This document shows positions 9,496 through 56,283 of a stretch of 64,000 nucleotides of DNA, in pieces (the stretch's first letter is position 1; every line of letters begins with the position of its first letter). The translations under genes and the position numbers were made by a program. The notes beneath the pieces are model-generated. The model saw only the letters and a program-made list of their open reading frames with translations. It was not told the DNA's origin and searched no databases. The DNA lies in the NCBI RefSeq assembly GCF_028713855.1, contig NZ_JAQTNN010000016.1:215-64214 (forward strand). The letters run 5' to 3'. Source of the stretch: Sulfuricurvum sp. (GTDB taxonomy: Bacteria; Campylobacterota; Campylobacteria; Campylobacterales; Sulfurimonadaceae).

Positions 9496-9553
9496 ATATT
9501 TCATTTTGTCATATTTTTAGAATATATTTCATTTTGTCATATTATGACGCAAT
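9496..9553. promoter_or_regulatory. 20-bp direct repeat x2 plus palindrome upstream of recA (candidate operator)
   Basis: atatttcattttgtcatatt at 9496-9515 and 9524-9543; GTCATA-T-TATGAC at 9536-9548. Confidence 0.55.
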
Positions 9554-50134: not shown

Positions 50135-50214
50135 CGATTCTTCCCGTTATATTATTTTATGAGAGTTTATCAAAGCTATAAATGCTTTAGCCTTAGGATT
50201 TATAACTGGCTGTT

Positions 50215-52179
50215 TTATGAAAGAGAACCGTATTTCTCCTCATATTCCCGAATCCGAGCTAACACTTCATTCACACTTTCAGTGAGTTCGCTACCCATCT
50301 TTTTGTATTCCTCATCCTCTCCCATAAGGCTCATAAGTGCATACCAAATTGGTTTGTAGATGTCTTTAAAGCCGTATTCTTCCATTTCAAAGAATTTTTT
50401 GGCTTGATAGTATTGACCTTTGGCGATCAATAAAATTAAGTAATCTTGAATATTTAGATCATGTTCTTGTTTTTTGGAGCTACACCATTCAATAAATTCA
50501 ATATAACTTTCTTCAAATCTTTCACATTTTAACTTCATTAGTGCCAATGAGTAATAACCATTAGGTAACATGGTGTTATGAATATCAAACATTTCATCAT
50601 AATTTGTTTTTGAATATCGCTGAATAATTTTATCTTGCGCCATGTGCAATTCATCAATTGCATCTTCTGCCTCCAATCGTTTAATTATAATATCAAGAAT
50701 TTCACCTATGTCTTGTTTGTTTTTAATTTTGAGTAGATTTTTTTTAGCTTGGTCAGTATTTTGTTCTCTAATTCCTTTTATTCCAGATAATAATAAATCC
50801 AAATCAGATTCACTTAATTCCTCAGCAAGATCTGATTTTATTGATAATAAATATTCCATAGTTTTTGACTTTAACTTATGTTCCATATCTACACCTATAC
50901 CTGCATGACTTAACGCTTCCGCCATATGATACGCATGATTTGGACTCACTTCAGTTGTTTGCAACGAATCGATAAGTCTTTTTGCCCTCTCCTCCAACTC
51001 CTCTTTCGAATACCACGATTCCAAAAACTTCACGAGCCATTCAACCCGCTGTCGGTCTTTTTTCCGTCCGTAACGCATCAGATACCAGATGTTAAAAAAT
51101 CGTTCCTTGATCTTGTAAATCTTGTTTTTCCCGATCGATTCGGATTCGACGATCTCGTATTTTTCTAGCTGTTTGAGCTGTGAGGAGATCGCTTTGCTCT
51201 CCAGTTTCGTTTTTTTCGCCACTTCACGGGTGAACATCCCATCCCAGTTCATTGCGATTGTATGGACGATCTCCTGCAACTGCGGAGGCAAATCATCCAT
51301 ACGGTGTTTATAGAGCGGTGTTACCTCATCGAGAATTTTGAGCAAATCATCAAAGGCATTTCCCCCATCATCCATCAAAATATCAAAAAGCATTACAAGT
51401 GTTCGCGGCACCCCGCCCGTCAATCGTCGCAATGTTTCAATCCGCGCAGGATTGGTTCGAATCAAAGTTTCTATCTGCTCTTTTTGATCTTCTTTGGCAA
51501 TAGCACGGAGAAAGGTGTGGGCTTCGGATTCATTGAACCCGCGCAGTTTGATAATCTTGAAAAACTGGTAAAACGGTTTATCGTATTTGTGGTGCTGTTC
51601 GAGCATATCGGTGGAGCCACCGATGATACGAATCGACGAAGAACTGAGCAAAATTTCGCGTAATCTACGTTGTTCTTTGATGCTTAGTTTACCGATCAAC
51701 TCATCGATGTTATCGATCAGCAATAGTAATTTTTTCTCCGATTGGATAACGGTGTTTTCAAAGAGGGAGAAACTTTTCAGCTCATAATCATCATCCTCAA
51801 AATGCCCTTCCATCTTATCCAGTATATCAGGGAAACTATCGGGATAGATACTTTGTAGATAATCGGCAACCTCTTCCCACAGTCGGCTAAGGGAGCGGAT
51901 TTGATACTGCTCTTCGGAAAATTTGACGGGTACAATACGCTCCGAGAGGTCAGGAGAGTTTTTCACCTCAAGCAACACCTTTCGCAATAACGTCGTTTTT
52001 CCCTGCCCACGTTGACCGATGATAATATAGTGTTGTTGCGGTACCGTATGGTTGGCTGATTTTATATCTTCAAATATTTCATTAAATATGTCCGTGCGAA
52101 CGACGAAGCGCGATAGGAACTCTCGCTCTTCCATCTCATCAGGGGTGTATTTGTAGCGTGAGTAATTAGTTAGCGACAT
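50215..52179 (-). CDS. STAND-like P-loop ATPase with winged HTH and helical C-terminus (654 aa)
   Basis: Walker A GQRGQGKTT, Walker B LLLIDNID, TGGVPR, HTH-like TREVAKKTKLESKAISSQLKQL; start set at MSLTNY, overlapping the upstream gene. Confidence 0.8.
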   Translation of the reverse strand: MSLTNYSRYKYTPDEMEEREFLSRFVVRTDIFNEIFEDIKSANHTVPQQHYIIIGQRGQGKTTLLRKVLLEVKNSPDLSERIVPVKFSEEQYQIRSLSRLWEEVADYLQSIYPDSFPDILDKMEGHFEDDDYELKSFSLFENTVIQSEKKLLLLIDNIDELIGKLSIKEQRRLREILLSSSSIRIIGGSTDMLEQHHKYDKPFYQFFKIIKLRGFNESEAHTFLRAIAKEDQKEQIETLIRTNPARIETLRRLTGGVPRTLVMLFDILMDDGGNAFDDLLKILDEVTPLYKHRMDDLPPQLQEIVHTIAMNWDGMFTREVAKKTKLESKAISSQLKQLEKYEIVESESIGKNKIYKIKERFFNIWYLMRYGRKKDRQRVEWLVKFLESWYSKEELEERAKRLIDSLQTTEVSPNHAYHMAEALSHAGIGVDMEHKLKSKTMEYLLSIKSDLAEELSESDLDLLLSGIKGIREQNTDQAKKNLLKIKNKQDIGEILDIIIKRLEAEDAIDELHMAQDKIIQRYSKTNYDEMFDIHNTMLPNGYYSLALMKLKCERFEESYIEFIEWCSSKKQEHDLNIQDYLILLIAKGQYYQAKKFFEMEEYGFKDIYKPIWYALMSLMGEDEEYKKMGSELTESVNEVLARIREYEEKYGSLS

Positions 52180-53320
52180 TGTTATACCACCACATACGCA
52201 AAATCGGGGAATTAAAACGGTATATATTTGGATCGTCACTGTTATTGATATAGCCATCATAGACGAGAGTATGGACAATCTCTTTAGCTATGTCATGATC
52301 CAAATTATGTTTTGAAATCAGGTTCGTAATCGATGATGATTTGATCGTATGTTTGTCAGATATAACATTCAAAATCTCTTTTGCGAAGTTGTATCCTGTC
52401 GGTTCAAATGCCTCTTTGAGCTTGCTTTTCCAGTGTTCAAAGTGATTCTTATGTTGAAGTGCCGCAGTAATGGCACAGTCAATATTCTCATTTGTAAGTG
52501 ATTCTTTGCTAATTGCTTTCGCCTCTTGTAGAACAAGCTGAATATAAAAAGGGATCAACCACTCAATTTTCTCTAATAAATACGTAATCGCTTCATTATC
52601 CACTTCTATCTCTTTACATAAAGCGCGAGTAAATACAAAAGCATCCTCAAACACCAAAGGAGGTATTTTTATACTGTTTAGATCATTAATCGATTTTGTT
52701 GCACCGATTCTCGCAACCACACTTTCCAATCCGATGGAACCTGCATATATAAACGTTACTTTTTCCAATATTTTAGGATTTTGTCGCAAGCTCCGTGCAG
52801 TTCGTAAAAATGATTCGGCTTGCTCCTTACTCTGATATTTAATGATATTCTCTACCGCTTGGGCAAATTCATCCACCATGATGATGAGCTTTTTTTCTAT
52901 CTGCAATTCTGTTACAAATTTTTCAAATGCTGCTGCATAATCCAATGTTTCCCCATCACCGAATTCGATTCCCGATGTCGAAACTTTTTTTACTTTCCCC
53001 GCTAATTCGCGTAGTGAAGCTGCCAATTTTGCGGCATAACGGTGCGTTTGAGAGATAAATGTTTCACTCGTTAGTGTATTAAATAGTTTGTGCCAAAATT
53101 CATGCTCATTATCCGCCGATTCAACATCCACAAACGCGACAACATACCCATTACGTGGTTCATCGTACATTTTGTACATGACAGAAGTTTTACCGACACG
53201 TCTCGGAGCCGCTATCAAAATGTGCCCGCCTGAGTCCACTGAATCCCAAATACGGTTTATCTCCGTATCTCTCGCCCAAAATTGATCTGCACGCGCTACT
53301 TGTCCAACACATAATTGCAT
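52166..53320 (-). CDS. STAND-like P-loop ATPase (384 aa) with C-terminal winged HTH
   Basis: Walker A APRRVGKTS, Walker B IIMVDEF, GSIGL, PFYIQ, FNSPILRMWW. Confidence 0.82.
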   Translation of the reverse strand: MQLCVGQVARADQFWARDTEINRIWDSVDSGGHILIAAPRRVGKTSVMYKMYDEPRNGYVVAFVDVESADNEHEFWHKLFNTLTSETFISQTHRYAAKLAASLRELAGKVKKVSTSGIEFGDGETLDYAAAFEKFVTELQIEKKLIIMVDEFAQAVENIIKYQSKEQAESFLRTARSLRQNPKILEKVTFIYAGSIGLESVVARIGATKSINDLNSIKIPPLVFEDAFVFTRALCKEIEVDNEAITYLLEKIEWLIPFYIQLVLQEAKAISKESLTNENIDCAITAALQHKNHFEHWKSKLKEAFEPTGYNFAKEILNVISDKHTIKSSSITNLISKHNLDHDIAKEIVHTLVYDGYINNSDDPNIYRFNSPILRMWWYNNVAN

Positions 53321-53331
53321 TTCAAGTTCCT

Positions 53332-53405
53332 TGACAAAATATTTATTGTCATTCTATCTGACAAAATATTTATTGTCAATGATTCTGACAAGATATTTAT
53401 TGTCA
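53332..53405. repeat. Three 20-bp palindromic repeats TGACAA(A/G)ATATTTATTGTCA, 27-bp period, distinct 7-nt spacers
   Basis: 53332-53351, 53359-53378, 53386-53405. Confidence 0.95.
53351..53379 (-). promoter_or_regulatory. Sigma70-type promoter for the ATPase pair
   Basis: Minus strand TTGACA (53379-74) - 17 nt - TAGAAT (53356-51). Confidence 0.65.
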
Positions 53406-53451
53406 TATCTAATAAGAAGAAAATATTAGGAGAAAAAAGATACACTCTCTT

Positions 53452-56283
53452 ATGGCAAAGAAAAAGAAAAAAATGATAAAACTCAACCAATCCATCCGCC
53501 ATTTTTTCGGCGATGAAGGATTTGACGAGGGGATTGAGCGGGTTTCGACCGAATCGCTGATCGCCCTCGCCCATACACTGGGAATATTTAACGGTACTAC
53601 TGATAAAGCGGCCCTGATTAAAAACTTCCGCCGTTTGTGGTCGGAGGGGGAGACCGACAACCGCGAGATGATCGTCGCCTTTTTCAAAAATGAGGGGAAA
53701 ATCTACCCCAACCCCAAACCCAAAGAAAAACCCCATGAGCGAGAAGACAAGATTGATGAGCTGTTGGAAGCCTTTGAAATCACCGAAGCCGAACGACGTG
53801 ATTTGCACGCTTCGTTTATCGATATACGCACCCGTAAAATCACCCCAGAGAAAATAGCGTCGAAGCTAGAGCACATCCGCTATACCAAAAAACGCGAATC
53901 CCTTGAGAAAGCGTTAGAGGGGAAATTCAACTATGATGATACGATGGAGTATTACGCTCCGATCACCTACCGTATCGACAGTGAAACATTTACTAAAATC
54001 CATGTCCTCAAAACAGCACCGCTGAATGAAAAACGGCTCCATGAAGAGAGTGTAGAGACATTGGTACCTGAGATCACCGAACTAAAGTCAGCACTAACAA
54101 CACTAAAACAAGAACAAACCGATCTGTTTTTATCGTCTATCAATCTCACCAATCATCGCTACTTGACCAAAGAACAAATCATATCTGCACTCAAAAGCGC
54201 CCCGCCATCGACCCAAACCTACGGGACGCTCAACATTACTATTTTACGCGACGTATTAGCACACCATTTACACACGCCGCTGATCTCTGTCGGAACCGAT
54301 GATTTAATCATCGAAATCGAGAAACAACTTCTGCTTCCTCATCGTAATATACCGCTCGAATATACCCTCTCTCTCCATTTGGATGCACAGGAATTGAGCC
54401 GACAAATCTGGAACGAAGAAGAGCTCACTATCACTACGATGGTAGAAGAACAAAGCACCCATGAAGAGAGGGCTTTTTTAGTTGAGTTAGAACATTTAGT
54501 CCATGAGTGCCGTGAGCGTTCCAAACTGCTCGAAATGAGTGAAGAGCTTCTTTACGGTGTTGTTTATGAACTTCTCCTTCCCTATCTCACCCTTACCCCT
54601 CACATCAGTTCTAAAACAACTCGACGGGTTCTATTTGCTTTTGATCAACGCAATGCGAATGAACTGCTCAAACGTCAGCGCCAAGCGTTGTTAGCGCGAA
54701 CCGTACGTGATTTTAAAAATCTTTTTCCCCTTGCGCGCTCCCTCCGCCGCCGCCTTATTTTTCATACGGGACCCACGAACAGCGGTAAAACCTATACGGC
54801 ATTTCAACAGCTTAAAAAAGCGGGGACAGGATACTATCTTGCCCCTCTGCGTTTGTTGGCGTTAGAAGGGTATGAGACTCTTCGGGATGATGGGGTCAGT
54901 GCATCCCTCATTACCGGAGAAGAGCAGCTGCTTGATGAGGATGCAACCCATATCAGTTCTACCATCGAGATGTTGAGCTTCGAAGTCGAAGTCGATTGCT
55001 GTGTCATCGATGAGGTACAAATGATCGATGACCGCGACCGGGGATGGGCGTGGGCAAATGCTATTATCGGTGCTCCGGCTAAAACGGTGATTATGACGGG
55101 TTCCCCCAATGCCCGTGAGGCGATTATCGCATTAGCCGAATACTTGGGTGAGCCGTTGGAGATTGTCGAATTTGAGCGGAAAAATCCCCTCGAACTTCTC
55201 AAATCACCGACGTCCATCGATGCAATTGAGCCTAAAACCGCCGTTATCGCCTTTACCCGTTCCAATGCCCTGCGGCTGAAACAACAACTTTCCAAAACGT
55301 ACCGTACCAGTGTCATCTACGGCAATCTGAGTCCGGAAGTACGCCGTGAAGAAGCACGCCGTTTCCGTGAGGGGGAGACCGATATTCTCGTCGCCACCGA
55401 CGCGATCAGCATGGGTCTGAACCTCCCGATCAAAACCCTGTTGTTTTCCAAAGCGGACAAATTCGACGGGCAAAACCAACGCAATCTCACCGCGACCGAA
55501 GTACGACAGATTTCAGGGCGCGCTGGACGATACGGGTTGAGTGAAAAAGGGTATGTCGGAGCACTAACAGGTGATGTGCTCAAAACCGTTACCAATCTCT
55601 TTACTAAACAAATCGAACCAATCGCATTGCCGTTTAACGTCATGGCAAACTTCGATCATATCATGCTTGTTTCCACTATTTTGGAAGAAAAATCTCTCTC
55701 AAATATCGTCGATTTTTTCGTTGAAAATATGAAGTTCGAAGGCCCTTTCCGTGCGGCCAATCTCGAATCGATGCAGGAAGCCTCCGCCATCGTCGATCAT
55801 TACGATCTCGATATGCGAACCAAATACACCCTTGCTACGGCACCGCTCTCCACCTCATCGCCGCTTGTGATGGCGGCATTCGAGCGCTATGTACGTGCAT
55901 TAGAGCAGAAAAAACCGATTGCCTACATCCCGCCGCAACGGTTAGGAAATTATGCCCTCTCAATGGAAGAGCTCCAAGAAGCGGAAGATCGGATCAAAGA
56001 GATCAGTCTCTATCTGTGGCTATCGTATCGAATGGGGGAATATTTCGTGGATGCAGAAAAAGCACGAGCGTTTCGGGGGGAACTGAACCGTTTTATCGAG
56101 AACTCGCTTCAGCAAAGCCATTTTGTCCCACGATGCAAAACATGCGGAAAACCGTTAGCACCTAACGCTGAGTTTGCCATCTGTCAGAGTTGTTTTCACA
56201 ATCTAAATCGTGCAAAAGCACATACGACAGCTCCCACTAAATTTCAGCCAAAAGAGAAAAGACGCTCTACTTACAGAGGCTGA
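53452..56283 (+). CDS. SUV3-like SF2 RNA helicase with long N-terminal extension and C-terminal Zn ribbon
   Basis: HTGPTNSGKT, APLRLLA, IDEVQM, RGWAW, ATDAISMGLNL, QISGRAGRY, CKTC..CQSC. Confidence 0.88.
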   Translation: MAKKKKKMIKLNQSIRHFFGDEGFDEGIERVSTESLIALAHTLGIFNGTTDKAALIKNFRRLWSEGETDNREMIVAFFKNEGKIYPNPKPKEKPHEREDKIDELLEAFEITEAERRDLHASFIDIRTRKITPEKIASKLEHIRYTKKRESLEKALEGKFNYDDTMEYYAPITYRIDSETFTKIHVLKTAPLNEKRLHEESVETLVPEITELKSALTTLKQEQTDLFLSSINLTNHRYLTKEQIISALKSAPPSTQTYGTLNITILRDVLAHHLHTPLISVGTDDLIIEIEKQLLLPHRNIPLEYTLSLHLDAQELSRQIWNEEELTITTMVEEQSTHEERAFLVELEHLVHECRERSKLLEMSEELLYGVVYELLLPYLTLTPHISSKTTRRVLFAFDQRNANELLKRQRQALLARTVRDFKNLFPLARSLRRRLIFHTGPTNSGKTYTAFQQLKKAGTGYYLAPLRLLALEGYETLRDDGVSASLITGEEQLLDEDATHISSTIEMLSFEVEVDCCVIDEVQMIDDRDRGWAWANAIIGAPAKTVIMTGSPNAREAIIALAEYLGEPLEIVEFERKNPLELLKSPTSIDAIEPKTAVIAFTRSNALRLKQQLSKTYRTSVIYGNLSPEVRREEARRFREGETDILVATDAISMGLNLPIKTLLFSKADKFDGQNQRNLTATEVRQISGRAGRYGLSEKGYVGALTGDVLKTVTNLFTKQIEPIALPFNVMANFDHIMLVSTILEEKSLSNIVDFFVENMKFEGPFRAANLESMQEASAIVDHYDLDMRTKYTLATAPLSTSSPLVMAAFERYVRALEQKKPIAYIPPQRLGNYALSMEELQEAEDRIKEISLYLWLSYRMGEYFVDAEKARAFRGELNRFIENSLQQSHFVPRCKTCGKPLAPNAEFAICQSCFHNLNRAKAHTTAPTKFQPKEKRRSTYRG

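Follow-up and report, generated by a model that had tools for sequence, protein, structure and literature searches.

Three near-identical palindromes lie across the predicted promoter of a pair of ATPase genes in Sulfuricurvum sp., which raises the question of what protein reads them and with what effect on the genes that follow. We addressed it in a 64,000-nucleotide stretch of this genome (the window) and in related loci from genomes and metagenomes. The argument refers to the following features, with positions relative to the promoter counted along the predicted ATPase-A transcript.

53332-53351: candidate operator unit 1, promoter-proximal, TGACAAAATATTTATTGTCA, at about -7 to +13 of the predicted transcript
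53359-53378: candidate operator unit 2, TGACAAAATATTTATTGTCA, 20/20 the same as unit 1, at about -34 to -15
53386-53405: candidate operator unit 3, distal, TGACAAGATATTTATTGTCA, 19/20, at about -61 to -42
53351-53379, minus strand: predicted sigma-70-type cassette promoter, TTGACA (53379-53374), 17-nt spacer, TAGAAT (53356-53351)
52166-53320, minus strand: ATPase A, 384 aa; Orc1/Cdc6-like AAA+ domain, lid and C-terminal winged helix (PF01637-like)
50215-52179, minus strand: ATPase B, 654 aa from the ATG at 52179; NACHT/Orc1-like NTPase module, basic winged helix and variable helical-repeat tail
51109-51285, minus strand: winged-helix domain of B, residues 299-357
51166-51204, minus strand: recognition helix of B, LESKAISSQLKQL, residues 326-338
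51193-51195, minus strand: Lys329 of B, the residue that co-varies with the operator arms
50202-53440: inserted cassette of 3,239 bp, comprising B, A, an 11-nt leader, the three operators and 35 nt beyond

Each unit has the architecture TGACAA-N8-TTGTCA, is 20 bp long and has a purely A/T centre, and the units start every 27 bp; Tandem Repeats Finder reported a period of 27, 2.9 copies and a score of 116. Coordinates and alignment bear out the first-pass annotation of this DNA, which had described three 20-bp units, 19-20/20 identical, with a 27-bp period. A consensus scan of the minus strand gave the promoter a score of 11/12, with the start site predicted, and matches the geometry that had been assigned to units 1-3. 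The -35 hexamer TTGACA is formed by the outer edge of unit 2 and the T at 53379, unit 2 also fills the promoter spacer, and the -10 element sits between unit 2 and unit 1. The two spacers of 7 nt, TTCTATC and ATGATTC, are alike at 3/7 positions. Their earlier description as unrelated holds to that extent, but the one that separates units 1 and 2 is more than filler: it contains the -10 element, and related Campylobacterota cassettes have GATAGAA, GATATAA or GATAAAA there. An AAGGA ribosome site comes next, followed by the ATG of ATPase A, 11 nt past unit 1. The distance of 27 bp from centre to centre corresponds to ~2.6 helical turns and would place neighbouring sites on roughly opposite faces of the DNA.

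The exact TGACAA-N8-TTGTCA motif occurs at these three places only in the genome (2,811,533 bases, 42% G+C), where the next-best match to the 20-mer has 3 mismatches. An RNA element was dropped as a reading, as no Rfam 15 covariance model matched positions 53150-53600 with E up to 1. Public runs labelled as RNA yielded contigs only, which were broken at the repeat, extended into the upstream DNA and bore signs of DNA carry-over.

The two genes overlap by 14 nt, at the end of A and the start of B. Each protein has an intact P-loop, and the GKT and Walker B residues are invariant or nearly so in the alignments of A and B; in A of the window, the two motifs read APRRVGKTS and MVDEF. Against PF01637 (ATPase_2), A scored 32.9 bits, just under the gathering cut-off of 33.2, with further weak matches to AAA families, while B scored 33.8 bits, just over 33.2, and reached a higher score of 37.6 bits against NACHT (cut-off 26.7). 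Searching solved structures with the sequence of A returned nothing useful. In the AlphaFold2 models of both proteins (pLDDT: A, 90; B, 81), an AAA+ core is followed by a lid and then by a winged helix, an order that at the level of fold is the arrangement of Orc1/Cdc6-like AAA+ proteins, and the model of B adds the helical-repeat tail. The top Foldseek matches were 2qen, 2qby_A and 2v1u_A, with E from 1e-11 to 1e-7. Nearest to A were the PF01637 protein 2qen (PABY2304; TM-scores 0.66-0.71) and DNA-bound Orc1/Cdc6; nearest to B was Orc1/Cdc6 on origin DNA, followed by Apaf-1, ORC subunits and Avs3, with NOD2 also matched. B additionally belongs to the STAND/NACHT class according to its NACHT score and the TPR or Sel1 tails of its relatives. 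No effector domain was found in A or B using Pfam and PADLOC. A known anti-phage system was dropped as a candidate because the matches in PADLOC-DB 2.0 were weak (mad8 with E about 1e-4 for both A and B, Csa3/CasR HTH with about 1e-3 for B).

The two winged helices differ in charge: that of B is basic (52 homologues; median net charge +7, pI 9.8) and that of A acidic (73 homologues; median -2, pI 5.8). The former gives weak matches to ArsR/SmtB and Csa3 HTH models, the latter a weak match to the Sso10a family, and A has a well-conserved LVYDGYINN..YRFNSP motif. In STAND proteins, a winged helix is normally an intramolecular module that does not read DNA, which speaks against B as the reader. 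The automatic JGI names of the B homologues P0139 and P0188 include 'DNA-binding transcriptional regulator GbsR (MarR family)', so that an independent pipeline also detects a MarR-like winged helix in B.

Two other aspects of B concern its nucleotide site and its tail. The Walker B region (residues 150-160, window 51700-51740) reads LLLIDNIDE, and its asparagine, N157, is invariant in 39 homologues, which suggests that B may bind ATP yet hydrolyse it slowly. The B proteins of L107 and L106 (L178, L179) are 1,065-1,097 aa long and contain at least 10 near-identical Sel1/TPR repeats; tail length and repeat number vary greatly among close relatives, pointing to a hypervariable sensor region.

Co-inheritance of the array and the A-B cassette

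Two to four palindromes precede every A-B cassette that we examined in Campylobacterota, Bacteroidota and metagenomes, so that conservation upstream of homologous pairs, a check suggested by the first-pass annotation, was indeed found. Relatives of A numbered at least 999 with E up to 1e-5. In a protein-first comparison of species-representative genomes, all ten relatives of A with upstream sequence (L001-L006 and L009-L012; A 40-93% identical) have two to three units with a 27-bp period directly before the start codon. These loci came from Sulfuricurvum, Sulfurimonas and Sulfurospirillum-like genomes and from one Bacteroidota MAG, and the identity of the upstream gene was irrelevant. B follows A in every sampled cassette. 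Among 401 Campylobacterota genomes, A is present in 5, and a relaxed pair pattern was detected in 5/5 of these, once each and at the cassette, compared with 2/396 genomes lacking A (Fisher p = 2.5e-10); the reversed control pattern gave no matches in the 401 genomes.

Starting from the DNA, a search for the exact pair returned 88 metagenome loci, 58 of them at an A gene or A fragment. At 53/88, a homologue of A with 28-95% identity starts a median of 11 nt past the array; 5 more have fragments of A, and 30/88 are without an adjacent A. The same search gave no matches in viral contigs, and we rejected a phage or plasmid origin of the array on this basis. Three units are the commonest number in A-linked arrays (33/53, with two arm mismatches allowed), the third being the most degenerate and often absent in relatives. 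A comparison of 64 A-linked arrays shows arms with essentially no variation and eight central positions of >90% A/T; 63 of the arrays have a period of 27 and 1 has a period of 28. The Bacteroidota promoter differs, with a TAnnTTTG motif after the proximal unit; the units are nonetheless retained, which speaks for a site used by a protein and against a signal of the promoter itself. On an 880-kb contig, a four-unit array (L062 11554-11654) separates an A gene from a divergent gene for a large serine recombinase.

In the window, the cassette joins the flanking DNA at 50201/50202 and 53440/53441 without target duplication. Most congeners have an empty site, in which orf102 and a SUV3-like gene are about 85 bp apart with no palindrome between them (29 congener loci). 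An insert of 3,239 bp at the same point is found in the window and in one other genome, G811, and across the 41 genus genomes, our own included, the array was found only where the cassette is inserted. Selection on the repeats, claimed earlier from their conservation within the array, is upheld by the fact that the array follows the cassette across phyla and is missing from empty sites.

The SUV3-like helicase gene (plus strand, 53452-56283) is a core gene, present in 40/41 genus genomes, own included, and it borders the hot spot. Close relatives of the cassette, with A 89-93% identical, adjoin unrelated genes and keep the units, which makes the helicase a bystander; the link that had been drawn between this gene and the array was given up. 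We likewise rejected a functional tie on the grounds that unit 3 lies about 56 bp upstream of the helicase start, outside the probable core promoter of that gene. Terminal repeats of a transposon or insertion sequence were also discarded, as was the remnant of a transposon end that had been considered as a way to refute the operator reading: the array is at one end only, and there is neither a transposase nor a target-site duplication. At window positions 53441-53454, TACACT is found 5 nt before the SUV3-like ATG, and genomes with an empty site read TACACTTACACTATG; this placement suggests that the helicase mRNA is leaderless or has a very short leader.

Operator type and the recognition helix of B

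Of 401 sampled Bacteroidota genomes, 19 encode a homologue of A, each followed by B. Repeated palindromes are found at the same place upstream of these 19 A genes, and their sequence differs between cassettes.

TGACAA operators: L104, and L107 with a 28-bp period
TGCCAA..TTGGCA operators, three copies: L106
TGCAAT..ATTGCA operators: L105
TGAATAAATTCA operators, three copies: L108-L112
CCAACA..TGTTGG-type operators: L113-L121

An operator sequence that is specific to the cassette is the signature of a reader encoded by the cassette. Residue 4 of the B helix (LESK..., Lys329) is Lys in 46/46 aligned cassettes with TGACAA arms; where the operator is of another type, it is Asn, Ser or Thr. The L107 cassette is distant and has kept both the TGACAA arms and ESK in B.

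As a further test, we turned to relatives of the L106 B protein, of which there were 540 with E up to 1e-10; among the matches listed, 120 were 53-100% identical, and their helix residue was Lys, Arg, Asn or Ser. Twelve contigs encoding such relatives were taken, and eleven of them had upstream sequence. The resulting comparison within one Bacteroidota clade covers 12 loci at 60-90% identity.

Helix Lys: L184, L185, L191; arms TGACAA
Helix Arg: L186, L187, L188; arms TGGCAA..TTGCCA
Helix Ser: L183, L106; arms TGCCAA..TTGG
Helix Asn after Asp/Asn: L181, L190; arms TACCAA..TTGGTA
Helix Asn after Glu/Ala: L189, L192; arms T(A/G)GCAA

Both arms of the operator switch jointly between types, and this symmetric co-variation suggests two reading heads per site. 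P0123 and L106 have NTPase modules that are 87% identical and differ both in the helix (DNN versus PNS) and in the arms (TACCAA versus TGCCAA). In a tree of the NTPase module with the winged helix left out, Ser, Arg and Lys are each found in more than one part of the tree, implying several independent switches that are matched by switches of the operator. Overall, Lys goes with GACAA arms in 50/50 cassettes and GACAA arms occur in 0/14 non-Lys cassettes, counts that stem from related sequences and non-independent events. The corresponding helix of A, DYMDFVEQL, is unchanged across the operator types of the clade and variable among the GACAA loci.

Some cassettes have lost most of A. L017 and L040 have perfect operators and an intact B with A cut to a 106-aa remnant, and in L030 B lies directly after the array. 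In L017 (5954-6303) and L040, the remnant is an ORF of the C-terminal winged helix, and a vapBC-like pair is divergent from the same operators.

Because the arms co-vary with the helix of B while the helix of A is constant, we read the array as the operators of B on the promoter of its own, horizontally mobile cassette, and B probably acts there by negative autoregulation. The ATPases' own wHTH domains had been proposed as the binder in the first-pass annotation; a binder encoded by the pair is indeed most likely, and the arms track the helix of B and not that of A. A reading that includes B draws directly on the anatomy and uniqueness of the array, its co-inheritance with the cassette, the empty site, and the covariation of residue with base.

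According to our working model, the basic winged helix within the NTPase module of B would read each TGACAA/TTGTCA arm pair, probably with two reading heads on each palindrome, and the two to four palindromes at their fixed 27-28-bp period would be filled together. As the units cover the -35 element, the spacer, the flank of the -10 element and the start site, their occupancy would block RNA polymerase, and the excluded polymerase would leave expression of the cassette low. We infer the binding itself, the dimer stoichiometry, the cooperativity, the sign of regulation and any dependence on the state of nucleotide or ligand; repression is deduced only from where the sites lie.

Competing readings of the array

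The array might instead serve as an ORC-like platform for parking or assembly, on which B, together with A, is held as an inactive DNA-anchored sensor that leaves or oligomerises upon activation, with an effect on transcription that is secondary or even activating. Such a role would fit the modelled folds of A and B, which resemble Orc1/Cdc6 bound to origin DNA, the rigidity of the 27-28-bp period while promoter elements move between phyla, and the lack of a detectable effector domain in either protein. We nevertheless regard it as unlikely, since the units always overlap the core promoter and start codon region, the classic position of a repressor, and one locus per genome would make a very small platform.

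It is also unlikely, in our estimate, that A-B constitutes an effector-less, DNA-addressed switch of the immune type. Here, an NLR-like sensor would read private palindromes through a residue-to-base code (Lys-GACAA, Arg-GGCAA, Ser-GCCAA), its output would be transcriptional, and pairs found apart from the cassette would be trans targets or remnants. Effectors could then be released in trans by the sensor wherever the same address precedes a toxin-antitoxin, SIR2, TIR, KAP or nuclease gene.

That A is the binder, or an A-B hetero-complex in which the C-terminal winged helix of A reads the DNA, appears improbable. A is the first gene past the array, it ends in a winged helix as Orc1/Cdc6 does, and its weak Sso10a match and conserved motif would agree with DNA binding. 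However, this winged helix is acidic, its helix varies among GACAA loci and stays constant where the operators differ, and perfect operators persist where A is reduced to its 106-aa remnant (L017, L040) or where B directly follows the array (L030).

Pairs that stand apart from the cassette count against the array as the operators of B and bear on a fourth reading. G817 and G829 (100% and 99% complete) have no match to A or B and have a two-unit pair with a 27-bp period before higB-higA, in inserts that occupy the same orf102/SUV3 hot spot (L136 810-1499, L129 4326-5014). The higB-higA insert abuts the start codon of the helicase, which is TTG there instead of ATG. G829 has a second, nearly perfect pair 49 nt before a gene for a KAP-family P-loop NTPase beside serS (L153 1501-3045, G829:C10:49001). 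In one of the two A-less Campylobacterota genomes with the pattern, the pair precedes a gene for a TPR protein whose C-terminus is like that of B; in the other, it lies between two convergent genes beside a TIR-domain gene. At the 30 A-less metagenome loci, the genes next to the pair that could be named are of the conflict or mobile kind, namely two HigB families with HigA, VapBC, Mrr-nSTAND3, SIR2-TPR, RNase T with AAA_21/RloB, DUF559, AAA_14-DUF4143, PDDEXK_2, PBECR2 and a DDE transposase. At a few loci, the neighbour is instead a core gene, for example FabI, and the contig ends on the other side. Two units are present in 32/35 such arrays (the 30 A-less and the five A-fragment loci), and in the genus 5/6 orphan units have an arm mismatch, as expected of relics.

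At such sites, B cannot be the binder unless the pairs are relics or reused promoter modules, and as relics or reused modules from cassette turnover is how we read them; it is possible that the orphan pairs have a second binder, or that the module takes part in the exchange of cassettes. A trans regulon of A-B was dropped. It would predict that the pair co-occurs with A-B, and the opposite was observed: in the 5 Campylobacterota genomes with A, the cassette is the only place where the pair is found, and the orphans are in genomes lacking A and B.

Taken further, the 47-bp pair could be a portable promoter/operator module or a recombination junction for the exchange of cassettes at hot spots. 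The pair is situated at one end of the insert, the higBA insert of other strains at the same hot spot starts with it, and it also precedes KAP NTPase, SIR2-TPR, Mrr-nSTAND3, VapBC, RloB-type and TIR genes. Yet the cassette has no recombinase or transposase and no second copy at its other end, the junctions of the two kinds of insert differ and lack a target duplication, viral contigs are without matches, and 5/6 orphan units in the genus are mismatched in the manner of relics. As this reading would also leave the covariation with the B helix unexplained, we give it little credence, as little as we give to A as the binder.

A factor encoded by the host and acting in trans on the array, for example one that also acts at recA, is very improbable. 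The orphan pairs in genomes without A or B would be consistent with it, as would the TTTGTCA-containing repeats of the recA leader with their 28-bp period. In the window, this leader (9496-9543) contains two direct repeats, ATATTTCA(A/T)TTTGTCATATT (= ATATTTCATTTTGTCATATT), 28 bp apart. They share just the TTTGTCA half-site with the array, lack the second arm, are not palindromic, and are kept in 38/41 genus genomes, most of which have neither cassette nor palindromes. The trans regulator shared with recA that had been suggested for the array is not supported by these direct repeats, conserved as they are without the cassette. Moreover, the palindromic motif occurs nowhere else in the genome and is missing from 394/396 A-less Campylobacterota genomes, the same motif is found across phyla, and the type of operator follows the cassette and not the host. 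An SOS/LexA-type regulon with recA was rejected because the genome has no second palindrome site and the recA leader differs. To our knowledge, the control of recA is poorly known in this lineage, and the direct repeats may be a regulatory site for this gene.

A recent functionless tandem duplication of 27 bp would account for copy numbers of 2 to 4 between relatives and has next to no chance of being correct, given that the arms are kept at 28% to 100% protein identity while centres and spacers drift and that the motif is unique in the genome.

Related systems and significance

Several known systems resemble the reading of the array as the operators of B in part. The nearest published prediction is a two-gene operon, the nSTAND2 counter-invader operon, a predicted mobile bacterial pair of related STAND-like NTPases (Kaur, Iyer, Burroughs, Aravind 2021; PMC8195603). 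[quoted passage not shown] Autoregulated mobile conflict cassettes with tandem palindromic operators are also known, as in the antitoxin HigA with its O1/O2 sites and in AbiEi (PMC7319586). The C proteins of restriction-modification systems with their C-boxes, like the cassette, have tandem palindromic operators on their own promoter, and these mobile systems too are autoregulated by a protein that they encode. In C proteins and antitoxins, the reader is a small dedicated HTH protein, whereas the proposed reader of the cassette is a winged helix within the 654-aa NTPase B. Embedded in this way, the DNA binding could be coupled to the state of nucleotide or ligand.

Archaeal Orc1/Cdc6 with its origin recognition boxes (PDB 2qby, 2v1u) has the same layout of AAA+ domain, lid and winged helix as A and B. 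In archaeal cdc6 and in the cassette alike, repeated dyad-symmetric AT-rich sites are located immediately upstream of the gene for the presumed reader. In contrast to the archaeal system, the cassette is without signs of a replicon, it encodes two paralogous ATPases, one of them with a sensor-like repeat tail, and its sites overlap a promoter. Orc1 binds an origin box as a monomer, whereas co-variation of the arms in the cassette suggests two heads per site. STAND-type factors such as MalT, AfsR and GutR resemble B as signal-transducing NTPases with a repeat sensor, which in their case controls transcription. DNA binding in these factors falls to a separate domain of the LuxR or SARP type, and for the most part they activate other operons; the proposed reader of the cassette is, by comparison, a winged helix internal to the NOD, and its only assured target is its own promoter.

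We know of no function or DNA site for PF01637 proteins. One of them, PABY2304 (PDB 2qen), is the best fold match of A, and A and B both give weak Pfam matches. In the literature on nSTAND2, on autoregulation by STAND winged helices and on DUF234/COG1672/PF01637, we found no description of operators of this kind. Genes for Orc1/Cdc6-like and STAND-like 'ATP-binding proteins' are very common in accessory regions of bacteria, with no activity known to us. The family now gains a test that can be checked, in which the DNA target is 74 bp long, the protein domain is named and Lys329 of B is the predicted specificity residue, whose replacement would be expected to redirect B to another sequence. The orphan operators before toxin and defence genes suggest either that cassettes turn over rapidly at hot spots or that the module has a broader use in regulation. 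If the reading of the array as the operators of B is true, a winged helix inside an NLR-type nucleotide-binding module would be a sequence-specific DNA reader in bacteria, the family would provide a set of orthogonal repressor-operator pairs, and switches of the immune type would be linked to a DNA-binding ancestry that they share with replication initiators.
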